DNA of 64,000 nt from Eledone cirrhosa (taxonomy: Eukaryota): NCBI GenBank assembly GCA_964016885.1, contig OZ024757.1, positions 16,368,001 through 16,432,000 on the forward strand, written 5' to 3'. Made by a program: the position numbers and the translations under genes. Positions 6,344 to 49,766 of the stretch are shown piece by piece; position 1 is the first letter of the stretch; each line of letters starts with the position of its first letter. The notes under the pieces are model-generated. The model was not told the origin of the DNA. It made no database searches and saw nothing but the letters and a program-made list of their open reading frames with translations.

Positions 6344-6530
6344 CAAGGTCTAGCAAATAGAGAAAATGTTTTAAAATACATTTTTTAAAATTCTCAGTAC
6401 TTACTATATGTGCCTTTACCGCGGTTTCATGCTCCAGAATAAACGGAAAATCCAAGCGGATTTCCATATATATATATATATATATATGCACACAACACAC
6501 ACGTATATATACACATATATATATATATAT

Positions 6531-6720
6531 AGGAACGAGTAGGATCCCGACGGCTGAGCTCAAGCCGTTTCGACGGCTAATTCTGGACAGAATTAGCCGT
6601 CGAGACGGCTTGAGCTCAACCGTCGAGATCCTACTGGTTCCTATTACCCACTCTACTACCCTAAGTATTGAGTACTTTGGTGCGTTATGGTCCATCTGGT
6701 TCCTTACCACATTTCTTTCG

Positions 6721-13062: not shown

Positions 13063-13063
<1 letters not shown>

Positions 13064-13748
13064 ATACCGATGATGGTTGGAAGATCACTGATGAAGGACC
13101 ACTTTATTCATATGTAACCCATTTGCAACTCCGCAGCACGTTTATTCTCATATTTACACATATTTTTTTCTCCCGCTGTGACCCGTCTATTTCATTCTTA
13201 CTGCCTCCTCTTTCTCTGTATCTTTACCCTCTCTAACAGTCACTCTCTCTATTAGCCTCTTCCTCGCCCTTCACTCACTCACTCTCTGTTACTGCCTCTC
13301 CTCCTCCTCCTCCTCCTTCCCGTTTGACCTGTGCGTAATTCTTTTCTTTCGCACGCTTGGCCAGGCCGGTCGGCATATTTTCTCTCTCTCGTCTACGATT
13401 TCACAGAACTTATGTTTACCGAATTCACAGACTGGACCCCTTCTTCCTCCCGTTAGACCTGTGCGAAATTCCTTCCTTGCTCACATTTCAACCACGTTTG
13501 ATGGTCTTTATTCTCTCTCGTTCACGATTTCACCGAACTTATATTCATGGAAATTTTTGGACTTGACTCGCTCTTCCTCACTTTTCGTTGCTTCACCATC
13601 TTTGTTTGTTTACACTCTCGCTGTTCCCTTTATTTACATGTCCCAACGACTTTCTTTAGCCGTTGCTCGCACCAACTGGAGGTATATGGTCTTTAAAGCG
13701 AAGAAATACCGATGCTGGTTGGAAGATCACTGATGAAGGACCACTTTA

Positions 13749-13755
<7 letters not shown>
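13063..13755 (+). mobile_element. 642-bp unit plus 51-bp terminal direct repeat inserted in (TA)n (family F4)
   Basis: 13063-13113 equals 13705-13755 with one mismatch; ends merge into (TA)n. Confidence 0.8.
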
Positions 13756-13788
<33 letters not shown>

Positions 13789-14869: not shown

Positions 14870-14871
<2 letters not shown>

Positions 14872-15009
14872 AAATGGCGAGCTGTGTGGTTTTAGTTATT
14901 GTTCGCTCTAGACTGAGGTATCTTGTCTCTAACGCGAAGAAATACCTTTGATTCCTCGCAGACAACTGACGATGGATATTACCCTCTTTCGCACGTAACT
15001 TTTATTTTC

Positions 15010-15012
<3 letters not shown>
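14870..15012 (+). mobile_element. Family F4 diverged fragment in (TA)n
   Basis: Aligns with 13655-13745 (TTTAG..TTG.TCGC..ACT(G)GAGGTAT..GCGAAGAAATACC..CTGA.GA.GGA). Confidence 0.7.
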
Positions 15013-15062
<50 letters not shown>

Positions 15063-15373
15063 GAGAGGTATAGAGATTGTTTTAGCAAGAAGCTAACGGC
15101 ATTCTATAACATATATGCGACTATAACGTCAAGATGGGAAAAGTAGTTAACGAAAGATTTAGGAAAAATAACTCAAACTCATCTCAAAAGAGAATCAGGA
15201 TATAAATTCATCCACAGAATTTAGTAAAATCCAGGGAAAAATCTATAGACCTTTAACTCATGATAAAATAAAGTTTGAAACACTTATATAATGGATCTGT
15301 TATTTTTATCTAAAGACATTTTTTTCCAATTCCATCCCGCCCGTCCCCTCAATCTATCTTATTTCCCATTCTT

Positions 15374-15409
15374 TCTTCTGATGAAGGACTAGCGTCCGAA
15401 ACGTTAAGA
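15374..15409 (+). ncRNA. Minimal type I hammerhead ribozyme (Penelope-type)
   Basis: TCTT-CTGATGA-A-GGAC-TAGC-GTCC-GAAA-CG-TT/AAGA; palindromic AACGTT stem III. Confidence 0.8.
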
Positions 15410-15494
15410 CCCTCTTCCTGCTATATCAAGCGTTAACCTAATATATCCCTTCCATATACTGTACCGATTGTGTTGTTATTTCTGTTTACCTTTT

Positions 15495-17004: not shown

Positions 17005-17150
17005 CTCGAGCAAATCACTTCATTTTACGTTGCTCCAGTGGACTGGCGTCCTGTCCAGGTGGGGGTCTTGAATTCTTGTCATTTCACGCCACGGAAACCG
17101 AGATAAGTACCGGACTGATGAGCCGCCGGGCTCGAAACAGACTTTAGTCT
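17005..17150 (+). mobile_element. V-SINE-like fragment (S2 variant)
   Basis: TGGACTGGCGTCCTGTCCAGG V-domain-like core and tail GAAACCGAGATAAG; homologous to 52352-52628. Confidence 0.7.
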
Positions 17151-19687: not shown

Positions 19688-19752
19688 TATTTTATCTGAT
19701 GAAAGGACACCATAATTTAACTTGGTGTCCTTGAAATATGTATAATGAAATA
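19688..19752 (+). ncRNA. Type I hammerhead ribozyme (F1)
   Basis: TATTTTAT-CTGATGA-AAGGACACCA..TGGTGTCCTT-GAAA-TATGTA-TA/ATGAAATA; perfect 10-bp stem II. Confidence 0.88.
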
Positions 19753-28344: not shown

Positions 28345-28379
<35 letters not shown>

Positions 28380-28385
<6 letters not shown>

Positions 28386-28484
28386 AACAAGGGGAGAAGA
28401 ATACTGCATGGTTGCACATGGATTACATATTATAAAATTAGTCCCTCATCAGTGATTTGCCAACCATCATTGGTATTTCATCGC
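28380..28484 (-). mobile_element. Family F4 fragment
   Basis: Minus strand GCGATGAAATACCAATGATGGTTGGCAAATCACTGATGAGGGAC...ATATGTAATCCATGTGCAAC aligns with 13063-13140. Confidence 0.7.
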
Positions 28485-36362: not shown

Positions 36363-38105
36363 TACTACTCAGAGCTGTCCAACCATAGAGCCACAGAAGG
36401 TCCAGAAGTACTGAAAGTCCCTCCAGCAACCAAAAACGACAACTACCCCATCCTTCGCGAAGAAGTGGAAGCAGCTGTGAAATCGCTCAAGAAGGGGAAG
36501 TCTGCAGAAGTGGATATCTTAGCGGAGCTGGTGCGGGCTGGGGGAGCAGCACTGATAAGCGCCCTACTGACCATCGGCAACAAGATCTGGCAGACAGGGA
36601 AATGACTAACAACATGTCACTTATCATCACCCTCCTCAAGAAAGCAACCTACAATGATGCCAATATTATGGTACCATCAGCCTCATCAGCCATCCAAGGA
36701 AAGTCTGAAGCCGCAAGCAGAAAAAAATTGTCATTGAAGAGCAAGCAGGCTTCCGACCAGGGCGAAGCGCAACAGAGCCGATCTTTCAACCTGAGGAGAA
36801 TATGCGAAAGGTACTTCCAACATCAACAGGACCTCTTCCACGTCTTCGTGGACTTCAAGAAGGCGTTCGGCGTAGTTTGGCACACAGTATTGTAGGCCAC
36901 AATGAAGCTGTACAACATCAATGGTAACTTGATCAGGATGTCCTCAGTGCTGGACTAACCTATAAACACCAACGAGGAAGCCTAATTTTTTAAAATATAT
37001 TTATCATTAGTTTTTATTCACTAAATCAATGAATGTTCTGGAAATTGCTGTCGAAACGTCAAAAGCTCAGCCATCGGGTGCTGACTCTCTACAATTGATC
37101 AGGCTGATACGGAGCCTATATTGCAAAGCCACCAGCGCAGTCTATTTAAACAACAACGTTGGGGACTGGTTCAGCACCACAGCTGGAGTACGACAAGGCT
37201 GTTTGCTCTCTCCAACTCTCTGCAACATCGTCTTAGAGAGAATTATGACAGGCGCACTGGAATACTATGAAAGGACAGACATCATTGGCCGAAAGACTAT
37301 GAACTTGCGTTTTGCCAACAACATAGATAGTCTATCAGGGAAGGAAGAGGGGCTAGCCAACTTAGTGGAACATCTTAACAAGACTCCTACCTCCTATGTC
37401 ATGCAGATCAGTGCAGAAAAGACGAAAGTGATGACCAACAGCACCAACGGCATCAACACTGACATCAGGGTCAACGACGAGAAACTAGAGTGCGTCAGCA
37501 GTTTTTTCAAATACTTGGGGGCACTCATTTCAGATGAAGGGTCTAAACCTCGCTAGATCTGCCCAGACTAACGCAGCACTTCAAAACTTAAAACAACCTG
37601 GAATGACAAAAATTTAGTCCTCAGCTCAAAGATCAGACTGATGCACTCTCTGGTCATGTCCATATTCTTGTATTCCTGTGAGTCTTGGTCAATAACAGCA
37701 GATCTGGAGAGAAGAATACAGGCTACGGAGATGAGATGACTCAGAAATTCCTTGGCATCACCTACAGAGACCGCATATCCAATGAGGAGGTGCGACACAG
37801 AATTTGGCAAGCCATCGGGCCCTCCAAAGACCTGCTGAACATTGTAAAAAAACACAAATTGAGATGGTCCGGGCACGCGACAAGATCTTCAGGGATTGCC
37901 AAGACTTTCCTGCAGGGAACAGTACAAGGAGGAAGGAAGGGAGTCAGACAGAAAAAAATATGGGAGGACAACATTTCGGAATGGACAGGCATGAGGCTGG
38001 GTGCAACCATGTGGAGGACGAAGAGGCGAGAGGAATGGAAGGAGCTGGTTATCAGGTCATCTGTGGCGCCCCAACGGTCCACCAGACTACGGAACAGATG
38101 TGATG
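36357..38105 (+). pseudogene. Decayed RTE-clade LINE reverse transcriptase region and 3' end
   Basis: Motifs EEVEAAVKSLKKGKS, FVDFKKAF, GVRQGCLLSP, NLRFAN, FKYLGA, LRWSGH; several frameshifts and stops; 157-bp insertion. Confidence 0.92.
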
Positions 38106-38213
38106 ATATATATATATATATATTTATATACCAGGTATCACACCATATGAAATATAATTATAATACATATATCACATCATATCAAATAACATATTTCTTG
38201 TATGCCTGGACTC

Positions 38214-38762
38214 GTTCTTCTTCTTCGCCCACTTATTCCTGGGCGGGTCGTTGGGGCAGAGTCTTCAAACACTCCTTCAAGCGGGTCCTGTCAGAAGCAA
38301 CCATTTCCCACTGATACGGCTGAATCGCCAAGTGAAACTAGCCGAGCTCATGGATGTTAGCCCATGATCTTACTCGAGGTCTACTCCTGGGTCTCCTACT
38401 GGTTAGTTTTTTCCCATAAAATCCGTATTCAGCGATTCTTTCCTGCGACATTTTAACCACATGTCCACAATATCGGAGCTGTGATGTCTCAATTCGGAGA
38501 AGTAGCGGCTCAATCTGGAGAAACTCTCTGATCTCCGAGCTACGCACTCTATCGAGTAACGCGTTACTCCAAAGACTCTTGGAAGGAATCCCATTTCGGC
38601 CGCATGTATTCGTGATCGTATTATTTCAGTCATTACCCAAGATTCCTGACCATAGGTAAATGTTGGCACGAATACCGAATTGAAGATAGCGAGTTTGGCG
38701 TTTACACCTACCTCCCTTCTTCTGAGTACCGAATGTTGAATCTGGGGCATTAGTGCACCAGC
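38214..38762 (-). pseudogene. Decayed RTE (Rex3/Expander-like) LINE 3' fragment
   Basis: KLAIFNSVFVPTFTYGQESWVMTE..RIHAAEMGFL, IEPLLLRIETSQLRYCGHV; (GAA)n tail. Confidence 0.88.
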
Positions 38763-39623: not shown

Positions 39624-39660
39624 AATGAAAAATGGCGTGCTGTGTTGTTGCAAATGTGGT

Positions 39661-39808
39661 ATATAAATAAAATGAAGAATTAGAAATAGAAGCCAGGACT
39701 ATCCATCATCAGTGGTCTACTAACCGTCATAGGTATTTCTTCGCATACGGCTAGTAGACCACTGATGATGGATAGTCCTGGCTTCTATTTCTAATTCTTC
39801 ATTTTCTT

Positions 39809-39813
<5 letters not shown>
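39661..39813. mobile_element. Family F4 fragment as inverted duplication
   Basis: 39661-39726 is the reverse complement of 39747-39813; contains the F4 motif on minus. Confidence 0.75.
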
Positions 39814-39889
<76 letters not shown>

Positions 39890-44949: not shown

Positions 44950-45330
44950 GTGGAAGAGAACACTTAACATTGAAAAGGATGGTCAGGAAAAGGGACTGTT
45001 CTGAACTGCCTGCTATTGAGCAATATCTGGTTTGCCAGCACTGTAGTCGAGTCTGCCTGAGCAAAGCTGGTTTGATAAGGTACGAACAAAGTCATATGGG
45101 TAGACCTCATGTAGCTTATGATCTGAAAAGGTGTAAGGAATGTGCAAGCATGGGAGTTCTTAAAAAACAAAGGAGAACACACTGTCAGAACCAAGAGCCT
45201 ACATCTGCCATGTCTGTGCCAGAGGGTGCAAGTCTTTGGCTAGTTTAAAGAGCCACGTTCGTGCCTCACATTTTTTAGCATGTTATCAGGCGATGGCAAT
45301 ACTCGAACACGAGTTTGCGGCCATCATGTA
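44950..45330 (+). mobile_element. LINE 3' end with C2H2-like zinc fingers (RTE/BovB-like)
   Basis: LVCQHCSRVCLSKAGLIRYEQSH; tail ACTCGAACACGAGT..GCCATCATGTAT. Confidence 0.6.
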
Positions 45331-45339
45331 TAATTGTCA

Positions 45340-46015
45340 CAGGTGTAGTGTTTGTACCAGAGTTTTCAAGTCGCTGGCTGGACTAAAAAGTCCCACTCGT
45401 TCAGCGCATTGGTAGGGGTTCTCCTACATGGATATAAAGTAGTGGCGGTACTCGAAATCGAGTTGGCAGCCACCATGTATGCATGTATATATGTATGTAT
45501 GCATATACGCATGCATGTATGTATGCATGTATGTATGTATGTTTGTCTATATGTATGCATTCATCTATTTATATATGTATGCATGTATGTGTGTATGTTT
45601 GCTTATATGTAAATATGCATTTACATATGTATATATATATGTATGTATATATATATGTATGTACGTGTATATGTTTGTATGTATGTATCTGTATACTTGT
45701 AAAAAGTCACACTCGTTCAGCGCATTGGTAGGGGTTCTCCAACATGGATATAGAGTAGTGGGCGTATTGGAAATCGAGTTGGCAGCCACCATGTATGCAT
45801 GTATATATGTATGTATGCATATATGCATGCATGTATGTATGCATGTATGTATGTATGTTTGTCTATATGTATGCATTCATCTATTTATATATGTATGCAT
45901 GTATGTACTCATGTATGTGTGTATGTTTGCTTATATGTATATATGCATTTACATATGTATATATATATGTATGTACGTGTATATGTTTGTATGTATGTAT
46001 CTGTATACTTGTACC
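45340..46015 (+). repeat. Related LINE tail with (ATGT)n, tandemly duplicated (period about 316 bp)
   Basis: About 45384-45699 is repeated at about 45700-46015. Confidence 0.85.
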
Positions 46016-48161: not shown

Positions 48162-48228
48162 AAGGTTTAGCAAATAATGAAAAAGTTTCAAAATAAATTT
48201 TAAAAAATTGACTTTACCTACTATAGTT

Positions 48229-48311
48229 ACCTTTACCGATCGGTTTCGAATCCCAAAAATAAACGGAGACCATACGGCCTTCGTTGCAAAGAAAGATTCT
48301 CGTCAGAAGGT
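48229..48311 (-). ncRNA. Type I hammerhead ribozyme, array copy 1
   Basis: ACCTT-CTGACGA-GAATCTT..GGGATTC-GAAA-CCGATCGG-TA/AAGGT; intact core. Confidence 0.92.
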
Positions 48312-48713
48312 TCTTTTCATTCGAAGAATATAAAATTCTTGAATTTAAATTACGAACTAGCGCTATCCAAAACTGTTCCTGAGATGAGAGTGAATGAAGT
48401 GGAATCAATTTTTTCAAGGGCCGAAGTAAAGATAGAGGCAGAGGGAGGTAGGTCAAACCGGCCGCAACTATCACTAGCAGCAGTCGGAACGACCCAATTT
48501 GTCTCTCAACAATAGAGGAGAGTAGTAATAATAGGATATGTGTTCCTTCACGCACTAGGCGCTAAGGGACGCATGTATTGTCCAACCAAATGCCAATGTG
48601 GTTCAATGGCAGGTTAATAAATTAACGAGCCAGAACATATATAAACAAGGTTTAGCAAATAATGAAAAAGTTTCAAAATAAATTTTAAAAAATTGACTTT
48701 ACCTACTATAGTT

Positions 48714-48796
48714 ACCTTTACCGATCGGTTTCGAATCCCAAAAATAAACGGAGACCATACGGCCTTCGTTGCAAAGAAAGATTCTCGTCAGAAGGT
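48714..48796 (-). ncRNA. Type I hammerhead ribozyme, array copy 2
   Basis: Identical to copy 1, offset +485. Confidence 0.92.
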
Positions 48797-49198
48797 TCTT
48801 TTCATTCGAAGAATATAAAATTCTTGAATTTAAATTACGAACTAGCGCTATCCAAAACTGTTCCTGAGATGAGAGTGAATGAAGTGGAATCAATTTTTTC
48901 AAGGGCCGAAGTAAAGATAGAGGCAGAGGGAGGTAGGTCAAACCGGCCGCAACTATCACTAGCAGCAGTCGGAACGACCCAATTTGTCTCTCAACAATAG
49001 AGGAGAGTAGTAATAATAGGATATGTGTTCCTTCACGCACAAGGCGCTAAGGGACGCATGTATTGTCCAACCAAATGCCAATGTGGTTCAATGGCAGGTT
49101 AATAAATTAACGAGCCAGAACATATATAAACAAGGTTTAGCAAATAATGAAAAAGTTTCAAAATAAATTTTAAAAAATTGACTTTACCTACTATAGTT

Positions 49199-49281
49199 AC
49201 CTTTACCGATCGGTTTCGAATCCCAAAAATAAACGGAGACCATACGGCCTTCGTTGCAAAGAAAGATTCTCGTCAGAAGGT
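49199..49281 (-). ncRNA. Type I hammerhead ribozyme, array copy 3
   Basis: Identical, offset +970. Confidence 0.92.
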
Positions 49282-49683
49282 TCTTTTCATTCGAAGAATA
49301 TAAAATTCTTGAATTTAAATTACGAACTAGCGCTATCCAAAACTGTTCCTGAGATGAGAGTGAATGAAGTGGAATCAATTTTTTCAAGGGCCGAAGTAAA
49401 GATAGAGGCAGAGGGAGGTAGGTCAAACCGGCCGCAACTATCACTAGCAGCAGTCGGAACGACCCAATTTGTCTCTCAACAATAGAGGAGAGTAGTAATA
49501 ATAGGATATGTGTTCCTTCACGCACTAGGCGCTAAGGGACGCATGTATTGTCCAACCAAATGCCAATGTGGTTCAATGGCAGGTTAATAAATTAACGAGC
49601 CAGAACATATATAAACAAGGTTTAGCAAATAATGAAAAAGTTTCAAAATAAATTTTAAAAAATTGACTTTACCTACTATAGTT

Positions 49684-49766
49684 ACCTTTACCGATCGGTT
49701 TCGAATCCCAAAAATAAACGGAGACCATACGGCCTTCGTTGCAAAGAAAGATTCTCGTCAGAAGGT
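49684..49766 (-). ncRNA. Type I hammerhead ribozyme, array copy 4
   Basis: Identical, offset +1455. Confidence 0.92.

Follow-up and report, generated by a model that had tools for sequence, protein, structure and literature searches.

The motif that recurs within the 64,000 nucleotides of Eledone cirrhosa considered here (contig OZ024757.1, positions 16,368,001 to 16,432,000, hereafter the window) is best explained as a hammerhead core whose strands follow one another in a non-circular order, and which likely serves for self-cutting in a Penelope-like retroelement that encodes no protein and is likely of Naiad type; judging from the sequence, we place the probability of this reading at about three in four. 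All the core letters, in the set defined for hammerheads (PMC3088659), are found in both complete copies, A and B: C3 U4 G5 A6 N7 G8 A9, G12 A13 A14, A15.1-U16.1 and H17. The cleavage triplet is AUA in copy A, a triplet that natural hammerheads use (PMC1636495), and AUC in copy B; in copy A, by the pattern of known hammerheads, the cut is predicted between 13686 and 13687, after H17. The first-pass annotation had taken the motif for an undescribed ribozyme-like RNA, and this stands in part, as the RNA is conserved, pseudoknotted and without an Rfam family, but it would be a hammerhead wired in a new way and would not constitute a ribozyme class of its own.

The Motif and the Element That Carries It

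The motif had been reported at four loci (13679, +; 14915, +; 28438–28484, −; 39696–39744, −), with a partial copy at 13063, and all of them are present at those positions. Over both strands of the window, GCGAWGAAATACC-N19-CTGANGA-N-GGA has 4 matches against 4e-9 expected from base composition, with a spacer 19 nt long in 4/4 copies, which bears out the invariant spacing that had been noticed; beyond these, BLAST and a profile search of the window, built from five copies of the motif, yielded nothing except the partial copy at 13063 and a half-copy in inverted orientation at 39747–39804. The pairings that had been drawn can also be recovered: the tetraloop hairpin of 4–5 bp, with G.U, forms in 4/5 copies and is broken at 14915; upstream GAGGTAT pairs with ATACC(TT) over 7 bp only at 14915, with a leading G.U, and over 5 bp at 13679; and TGGTCTT pairs with AGGACCA over 7 bp at 13679, the same register giving only 4/7 at 14915. 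The hairpin was rejected as an element of the core; it most likely arises incidentally where the 3′ strands of IIIb and I adjoin. Missed in that first description were stem I, between the strand 3′ of GGTAT-H and the strand 5′ of CTGANGA, stem II (TCGC/GCGA) and the further helices (Table 1).

The overlap of the motif with the terminal repeat of a (TA)n-inserted unit is upheld by the layout of that unit, a 642-nt monomer and a 50-nt repeat, just as the window hammerhead scan upholds that 13063–13754 has no canonical hammerhead; in Rfam 15 the unit has 0 matches at E≤10, and the best 150 of the 376 Rfam matches of the whole window are only microsatellite-driven miRNA matches, below threshold. 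That the motif could be a coding remnant is countered by the frames of the unit, none of which matches Pfam, and among 150 of the 167 frames of the window the Pfam scan gave no remnant of a Penelope-type or Naiad protein.

Partial tandems, a 30–40-bp tail, inverted 5′ copies and a (TA)n target together characterize Penelope-like elements, and Naiads above all, in the paper on Naiads (PMC8557442). The window family shares with the Naiads (Craig et al., 2021; PMC8557442) the (TA)n target, the pLTR or partial tandem, the tail, the inverted 5′ copy and the lack of a canonical hammerhead, and this analysis makes it likely a Naiad-type Penelope-like element. The unit 13063–13754 lacks the Naiad hallmark, an ORF with an N-terminal GIY-YIG and RT and with the CxC and DKA motifs, and would be at most a non-autonomous Naiad derivative.

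The three 5′-truncated copies (13063, 28484 and 39744) have in common an extension of ~30 nt that is absent from the 3′ end of the unit. In 3/3 they start 10–19 nt 3′ of the predicted cut, in line with the cut proposed, and the sequence upstream of the cut is absent from 3/3, these being few (n = 3) and chosen by the motif itself. At 39630–39814 the turning point of the inverted duplication lies at most ~20 nt from the predicted 5′ end of the RNA and overlaps the strands of stem I, and fold-back priming by the end of the cDNA is suggested. The pyrimidine-rich body of the 642-nt unit contains an internal tandem duplication of 130 bp, 71% identical (13309–13579, +), and in the reads the subfamilies of the unit diverge near 13554–13632.

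Type I hammerheads occur elsewhere in the window, which is rich in (TA)n. At 48204–49761 (−), a tandem array with a period of 485 bp carries four near-identical ones (cores at 48306, 48791, 49276 and 49761), with a stem II of 7 bp with a long loop and a palindromic stem III, in a classic retrozyme-like array; a second family lies in Penelope-type termini at 19696 (+), 19532 (−), 96 (−), 829 (+) and 43830 (−), the 19532 and 19696 members forming an inverted pair. Two minimal cores that resemble hammerheads (CTGATGA, a short stem II and GAAAC), one at 15378, within 15060–15430 (+), and one at 17115 (+), failed the strict scan, and the first is preceded by a broken stretch that, by eye, may be the end of a Penelope-type ORF. 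The window also holds the broken remnant, in several frames, of a LINE-like reverse transcriptase at 36389–38314 (+; RVT_1, E 5e-12, at 37011–37553), a long inverted repeat, rich in GC and flanked by (TA)n runs, at 6521–6642, and a short frame that matches a C2H2 zinc finger (E 9e-6) at 45164–45412 (+).

Table 1. Features of the predicted fold and of the element that carries it (positions in the window).
Feature	Positions	Strand	Details
Complete copy A, predicted split-block permuted hammerhead	13640..13741	+	Helices IV, V, II, IIIb, IIIa, I
Helix IV, 5′ strand	13640..13643	+	4/4 Watson–Crick with 13738–13741, just after CUGAUGA-N; equivalent helix covaries in coral family
Hairpin V	13644..13665	+	13644–51/13658–65, 7/8 pairs; reads carry variants that change both sides of pairs
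Stem II, 5′ strand, displaced upstream	13667..13670	+	Pairs with GCGA 13698–13701; 4/4 Watson–Crick in both complete copies, invariant
Helix IIIb, 5′ strand	13672..13677	+	6/6 with 13717–13722, one U.G; equivalent of stem I–II interaction helix
K-turn-like loop, non-bulged strand N-G-A	13678..13680	+	Faces 13711–13716 (3-nt bulge, then G-A in most copies); putative k-turn
Stem III, 5′ strand GGTAT, and H17 (A13686)	13681..13686	+	5/5 Watson–Crick with ATACC 13706–10
Stem I, 5′ strand	13687..13693	+	7/7 with 13723–13729, one G.U
G12-A13-A14 and stem III, 3′ strand (A15.1...)	13703..13710	+	Seen in sequence
CUGAUGA core (C3–A9)	13730..13736	+	Seen in sequence
Complete copy B	14870..15013	+	II 14903–06/14934–37, III 14915–21/14942–48, H17 C14922, I 14923–28/14960–65, core 14966–72
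Protein-less Penelope-type unit	13063..13754	+	642-nt monomer and 50-nt terminal direct repeat between (TA)n runs; no Pfam match in frames
5′-truncated copy	13063..13112	+	Starts 19 nt after predicted cut; continues into unit tail and body
5′-truncated copy with tail	28372..28484	−	Between (TA)n runs; starts 10–12 nt after predicted cut
5′-truncated copy with tail	39630..39744	−	Starts 10–12 nt after predicted cut
Inverted duplicate of 3′ half of 39744 copy	39747..39814	+	Inverted 5′ repeat as described for Penelope-like insertions (PMC8557442)

Predicted Fold

From 5′ to 3′ the predicted order is helix IV, hairpin V, the strand of stem II, IIIb, then stem III, the U-H site and stem I, a linker of 4–5 nt, and finally stem II′-GAA-A-stem III, IIIb′, stem I′-CUGANGA and IV′. 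From this order of strands it follows that stems I, II and III cross one another and that the opening of the chain falls between A9 and stem II; and because the partner of stem II is upstream, unlike that of type SGC, it is the CUGANGA block that is split at that point. The upstream TCGC stands 15 nt 5′ of U16.1 and pairs with the GCGA that precedes GAA. Stem II has 4/4 pairs in both complete copies, stem III 5/5 in A and 7/7 in B, and stem I 7/7 and 6/6, with one pair of stem I changed on both sides between the copies and another on one side; in copy B, IIIb is half broken (3/6) and the 5′ strand of helix IV is absent. The type II hammerhead with core insertions that had been proposed fails on this arrangement, because that type has stems III and I closed as hairpins in the stretch from GAAA to CUGANGA, and here GGTAT, the partner in stem III, and the U-H site lie upstream of GAAA.

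The main risk to the hammerhead reading is the break at A9/10.1. In the window family stem II has a length of just 4 bp and is identical in the two complete copies, and the 10.1-11.1 pair, which in a hammerhead stacks on A9.G12, is ambiguous, being A.A or C.A in copy A; natural hammerheads tolerate U.U pairs and short stems II (PMC3088659). The loop that joins IIIb and stem III presents a 3-nt bulge and tandem G.A, which is the sequence pattern of a k-turn. The bulge of a k-turn is 3 nt long. By definition, the k-turn consists of a helix, a bulge, tandem G.A and A.G pairs, and a second helix.

The minimum free energy fold of copy A includes the nested subset IV, V, IIIb and IIIa, and that of copy B ties up the strand of stem II in another hairpin; with z-scores of 0.33 and −0.61, the nested folds are no more stable than shuffled sequences. 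The covariation among the window copies does not reach significance (114/500 shuffles). A descriptor holding only the core letters and the order of the helices, which was set after the copies were known and is thus not blind, gave 2 matches in the window, these being the two complete copies, against 1 match in 40 resampled windows, 0/42 viral chance loci and 0/18 metagenome loci outside the coral family considered below.

The reads and contigs of 4 runs (under three organism labels), aligned to 13500–13756 at 80% likeness, reveal a family of many genomic copies. Among the 40 of 90 differences listed, none falls in 13679–88, 13698–701, 13703–10 or 13717–41, intervals that take in stem III, the 3′ strand of stem II, GAA, IIIb′, stem I′ and the core. 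The frequent variants preserve pairing or strengthen it (13677 T>C, 584/634; 13689 G>A, 548/739; 13691 C>T, 351/739): the C that most reads have at 13677 gives a C-G pair in IIIb, G13689A turns the G.U of stem I into A-U, and at 13715 nearly all reads have A, which is the A of the putative k-turn. A minor variant, 13690 T>C, would break a pair of stem I unless the partner changes too. In hairpin V, five linked changes (70–73% of the + mates in run X10; 13647 435/605, 13648 434/605, 13660 438/623, 13661 439/604, 13662 443/604) swap two pairs and mend a third, the pairs being changed on both sides; they lie at two CpG sites, and both letters of each change together. As all these variants are differences between subfamilies, they represent few independent events, and since copy A carries minority alleles and copy B looks decayed, both of the complete copies in the window may be inactive. 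Among the results listed for these reads, which are of DNA only, no accumulation of read ends appears where the cut is predicted.

Naiad Elements of Corals and Other Animals

A scan of metagenomes with a pattern taken from the published Naiad motifs, which specified nothing but the cores, stem III and, within stem II′, three letters, leaving stem I, the partner of stem II, IV, V and IIIb free, returned at least 120 loci (about 230 in all). Of the 120 listed, 101 form one family, which by eye is near-identical to the 3′ end of the Acropora Naiad and consists of two subfamilies, mostly from two data sets. The other 19 listed loci are chance-like, as are 42 viral loci, except for one member of the coral family that the filter had missed. 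Among the coral loci listed, stem I reaches at least 5/6 in 92/101, a figure that in the viral contigs scanned with loose core patterns (16 and 26 loci, chance-like) is 1/16 and 1/26, and the upstream partner of stem II reaches at least 6 bp in 65/94, with 58 of them at one offset.

When 68 coral copies were aligned, 92.8% of the cells pair, against 26–44% in slid controls; these 68 were taken from 86 loci with full context, and the 18 left out, mostly damaged upstream, make the selection favorable to the model. The 10.1-11.1 pair is here a G-C from the upstream strand in 60/68 copies, and the interaction helix of the IIIb type is paired at 94.8%. Two-sided changes between the two subfamilies affect stems I, IIIb and IV, while stems II and V are kept with almost no two-sided change; as this covariation derives from two subfamilies, it amounts to few events. 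The similarity between the subfamilies runs mostly from about −49/−58 to +71 around H17, and the outer helix IV spans −52 to +71. Rfam gave 2 matches on three coral loci, both by chance, and a pattern specific to the window family had 0 matches in prokaryote genomes and 0 in viral contigs. The window copies escape a covariance model built on the coral family (11.4 bits, E 3.3), and, with no remnant of a Naiad protein among the window frames scanned either, the link of the window family to Naiads is one of wiring, target and layout, not of demonstrated sequence homology.

In the consensus 3′ ends in the supplement of PMC8557442, which come from several phyla and were compared by eye, the same IV-V-II-III-I order appears in other letters in Naiad_Amil, Aacu and Anas, in the family of part 12 (by file order a Morbakka one), in EuTe and in Obim and Ovul. 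Stem II reads GGCUCC/GGAGCC in Acropora, GACGCC/GGCGUC in EuTe, GGCCCC/GGGGCC in the part-12 family and GACACC/GGUGUC in Obim and Ovul, and the consensus of these last two also shows a 5-bp stem, a 3-nt bulge and a tandem G.A loop. Naiad_Esco and Naiad_Bfor fit imperfectly, the consensus stem I of Bfor having 2 bp, and no such motif was noticed by eye at the 3′ ends of Naiad_Ppla, Omin, Adux and Skow-1, all within a set of 54 Naiad families. In the same supplement, nematode Naiad 3′ ends present, by eye, type-CSG hammerheads with an interaction helix, and the family of part 17 (by file order probably Limulus) a type-SGC hammerhead.

According to PMC8557442, standard descriptors found no hammerheads in Naiads, although "HHR_core" was flagged, and "HHR_half_core" in eight families; Naiad_Ovul, which by eye shows the wiring of the window family, is one of the eight. 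That paper assigned no fold to them, which is where the present analysis differs. Judged from these comparisons, we are inclined to think that Naiads across animals carry non-circularly permuted hammerheads, of type CSG in nematodes, of type SGC in one arthropod family, and with the split between A9 and stem II in cnidarians, a clam shrimp and octopods, and that the octopod form, its stem III containing a k-turn, would cut as a monomer.

Proposed Role in the Element

Helices I to III would assemble a normal hammerhead active site, in which the short linker from I to II′ and helix IIIb would hold stems I and II together while the k-turn-like loop would fold stem III back. The RNA would be cut after H17, which would free an RNA of unit length from tandem or read-through transcripts and set its 5′ end, as has been proposed for the hammerheads of other Penelope-like elements (PMC6765202; bioRxiv 10.64898/2026.07.22.740005). 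The reverse transcriptase and endonuclease of an autonomous Naiad-type element could then copy the freed RNA into (TA)n, and the resulting insertions would leave 5′ repeats that begin just downstream of the cut.

Naiads are among the most abundant Penelope-like elements of invertebrates, and hammerheads that perhaps parasitise such elements have been discussed (PMC8557442). A conserved but rewired hammerhead would, if true, reverse the reading that Naiads lack hammerheads, and would make the formation of their 5′ ends testable with one gel; it would also mean that searches by descriptor and by Rfam miss a large set of ribozymes.

Alternative Explanations

The strongest rival, although an unlikely one, is that the fold is real and does not cut autonomously, being either a slow or dead relic of a hammerhead that serves as a signal for protein binding or reverse transcription, or an RNA that cuts only when a helper protein is present. 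The split at A9/10.1, for which no precedent was found in the literature examined, and the weak 10.1-11.1 pair of the window family would fit such an RNA, as would the slowness of minimal Penelope-like hammerheads in vitro reported in PMC6765202 and a k-turn-like loop that could bind a protein. However, every catalytic letter has been kept across families whose stems share no sequence, and the truncated copies begin just after the predicted cut, both of which speak for the self-cutting hammerhead.

Very improbable is an ordinary type-SGC hammerhead, in which stem II, or its first pair, would be formed with the strand that comes right after CUGANGA. The blocks do follow the order S-G-C, and in 3/4 of the window copies a pair (U-A, U-A, G.U) can form between the nucleotide that follows A9 and the one that precedes GAA, so that a hybrid of one pair is possible; yet a downstream stem II has only 0–1 bp in the window and reaches at least 4/6 in 0/101 of the coral loci listed, and of the stem II cells of the coral copies 25% pair downstream as against 94% with the upstream partner.

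An HDV ribozyme has a P1 of 7 bp, P2, P3, L3 and P1.1, and a catalytic C in a short J4/2. A nested pseudoknot of HDV-like helix order had been the other fold proposed for the motif; taken as a double pseudoknot that would be cut 5′ of G13679, with CUGAUGA as J4/2, it can indeed be drawn for copy A, and in copy B its P1 reaches 7 bp, the first of them a G.U; HDV-like ribozymes are known, moreover, in other retrotransposons (PMC6765202). It is hardly credible nevertheless, for P1 in copy A stops at 5 bp, P3, L3 and P1.1 are all missing, and in the 14915 copy P2 falls to 4/7 and P4 is broken, precisely where stem I of the hammerhead is a perfect 6 bp; nor does any HDV family of Rfam match, and GAAA, the U-H site and the Naiad versions would be left unexplained.

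Equally hard to sustain is the absence of any selected structure, the motif being then a mere terminal repeat of a young transposon family, since the common descent of the copies, the covariation in the window, which is not significant, and the flat z-scores of the folds that would suit it are opposed by six helices and a complete core in register, by the end of the similarity of the coral subfamilies at the outer helix, and by the same wiring in different letters in distant families.

Comparison With Known Hammerheads

The nearest relatives of the hammerhead proposed here are the types SGC and CSG (Eckert et al., 2023; PMC10085705), which have the same core, the same cyclic order of the site, GAAA and CUGAnGA blocks, three crossing stems, a short linker between stems I and II and an extra helix that joins the far ends of those two stems. 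GCGAWGAAATACC and its surroundings would differ from them in that the chain opens inside block C, between A9 and stem II, a break assumed in that paper to be impossible because no hammerhead alignment has more than 1–2 nt there; in that the interaction helix and stem III are connected through both strands, in the k-turn-like loop, with IV and V clamping the opening; and in that it sits in retroelements of animal genomes. Type SGC (site, GAAA, CUGANGA) cleaves in vitro at 0.007–0.19 per min, and the same paper reports no SGC or CSG RNA in the genomes of known organisms and only two natural CSG sequences (PMC10085705). SGC, GCS and CSG can be regarded as openings of one circle, of which the window form would be a further one.

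If this is true, the split form would be a seventh natural wiring, breaking the scheme of six permutations of Eckert et al., which is built on a CUGAnGA block that cannot be split, and non-circular permutations would move from anonymous metatranscriptome contigs into animal genomes, where these would be the first such ribozymes, and in very high copy number. The free ends at A9/10.1, together with a k-turn in stem III, would offer a new scaffold for RNA switches. In a literature search that had most subscription journals outside its scope, no description of this wiring, or of any hammerhead fold for Naiads, was found.

With respect to the element, the window family, unlike the published Naiads, carries no ORF, and its relation to the octopus members among them (PMC8557442) is not one of demonstrated sequence homology. 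The type I minimal hammerheads in the pseudo-LTRs of Penelope-like elements and in non-LTR retrozymes (PMC6765202; bioRxiv 10.64898/2026.07.22.740005), as these sources describe them, lie likewise in a terminal repeat near the 3′ end, with the same likely job, and in elements of the same kind, with tandem or partial repeat, tail and inverted 5′ copy. They act as dimers, however, and each is a three-way junction without a knot whose stem III is short and palindromic, in contrast to the triple pseudoknot of ~100 nt with a long stem III that is predicted here. At the level of the backbone, the closest natural case is the (+) hammerhead of CChMVd (PMC3705267), which carries an extra A between A9 and G10.1, that is, at the same position as the break in the window motif; at that position U is better than A, and an extra C or G is harmful (PMC3705267). 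What in CChMVd is the insertion of one nucleotide would in the window motif be a break of the strand with two helices.
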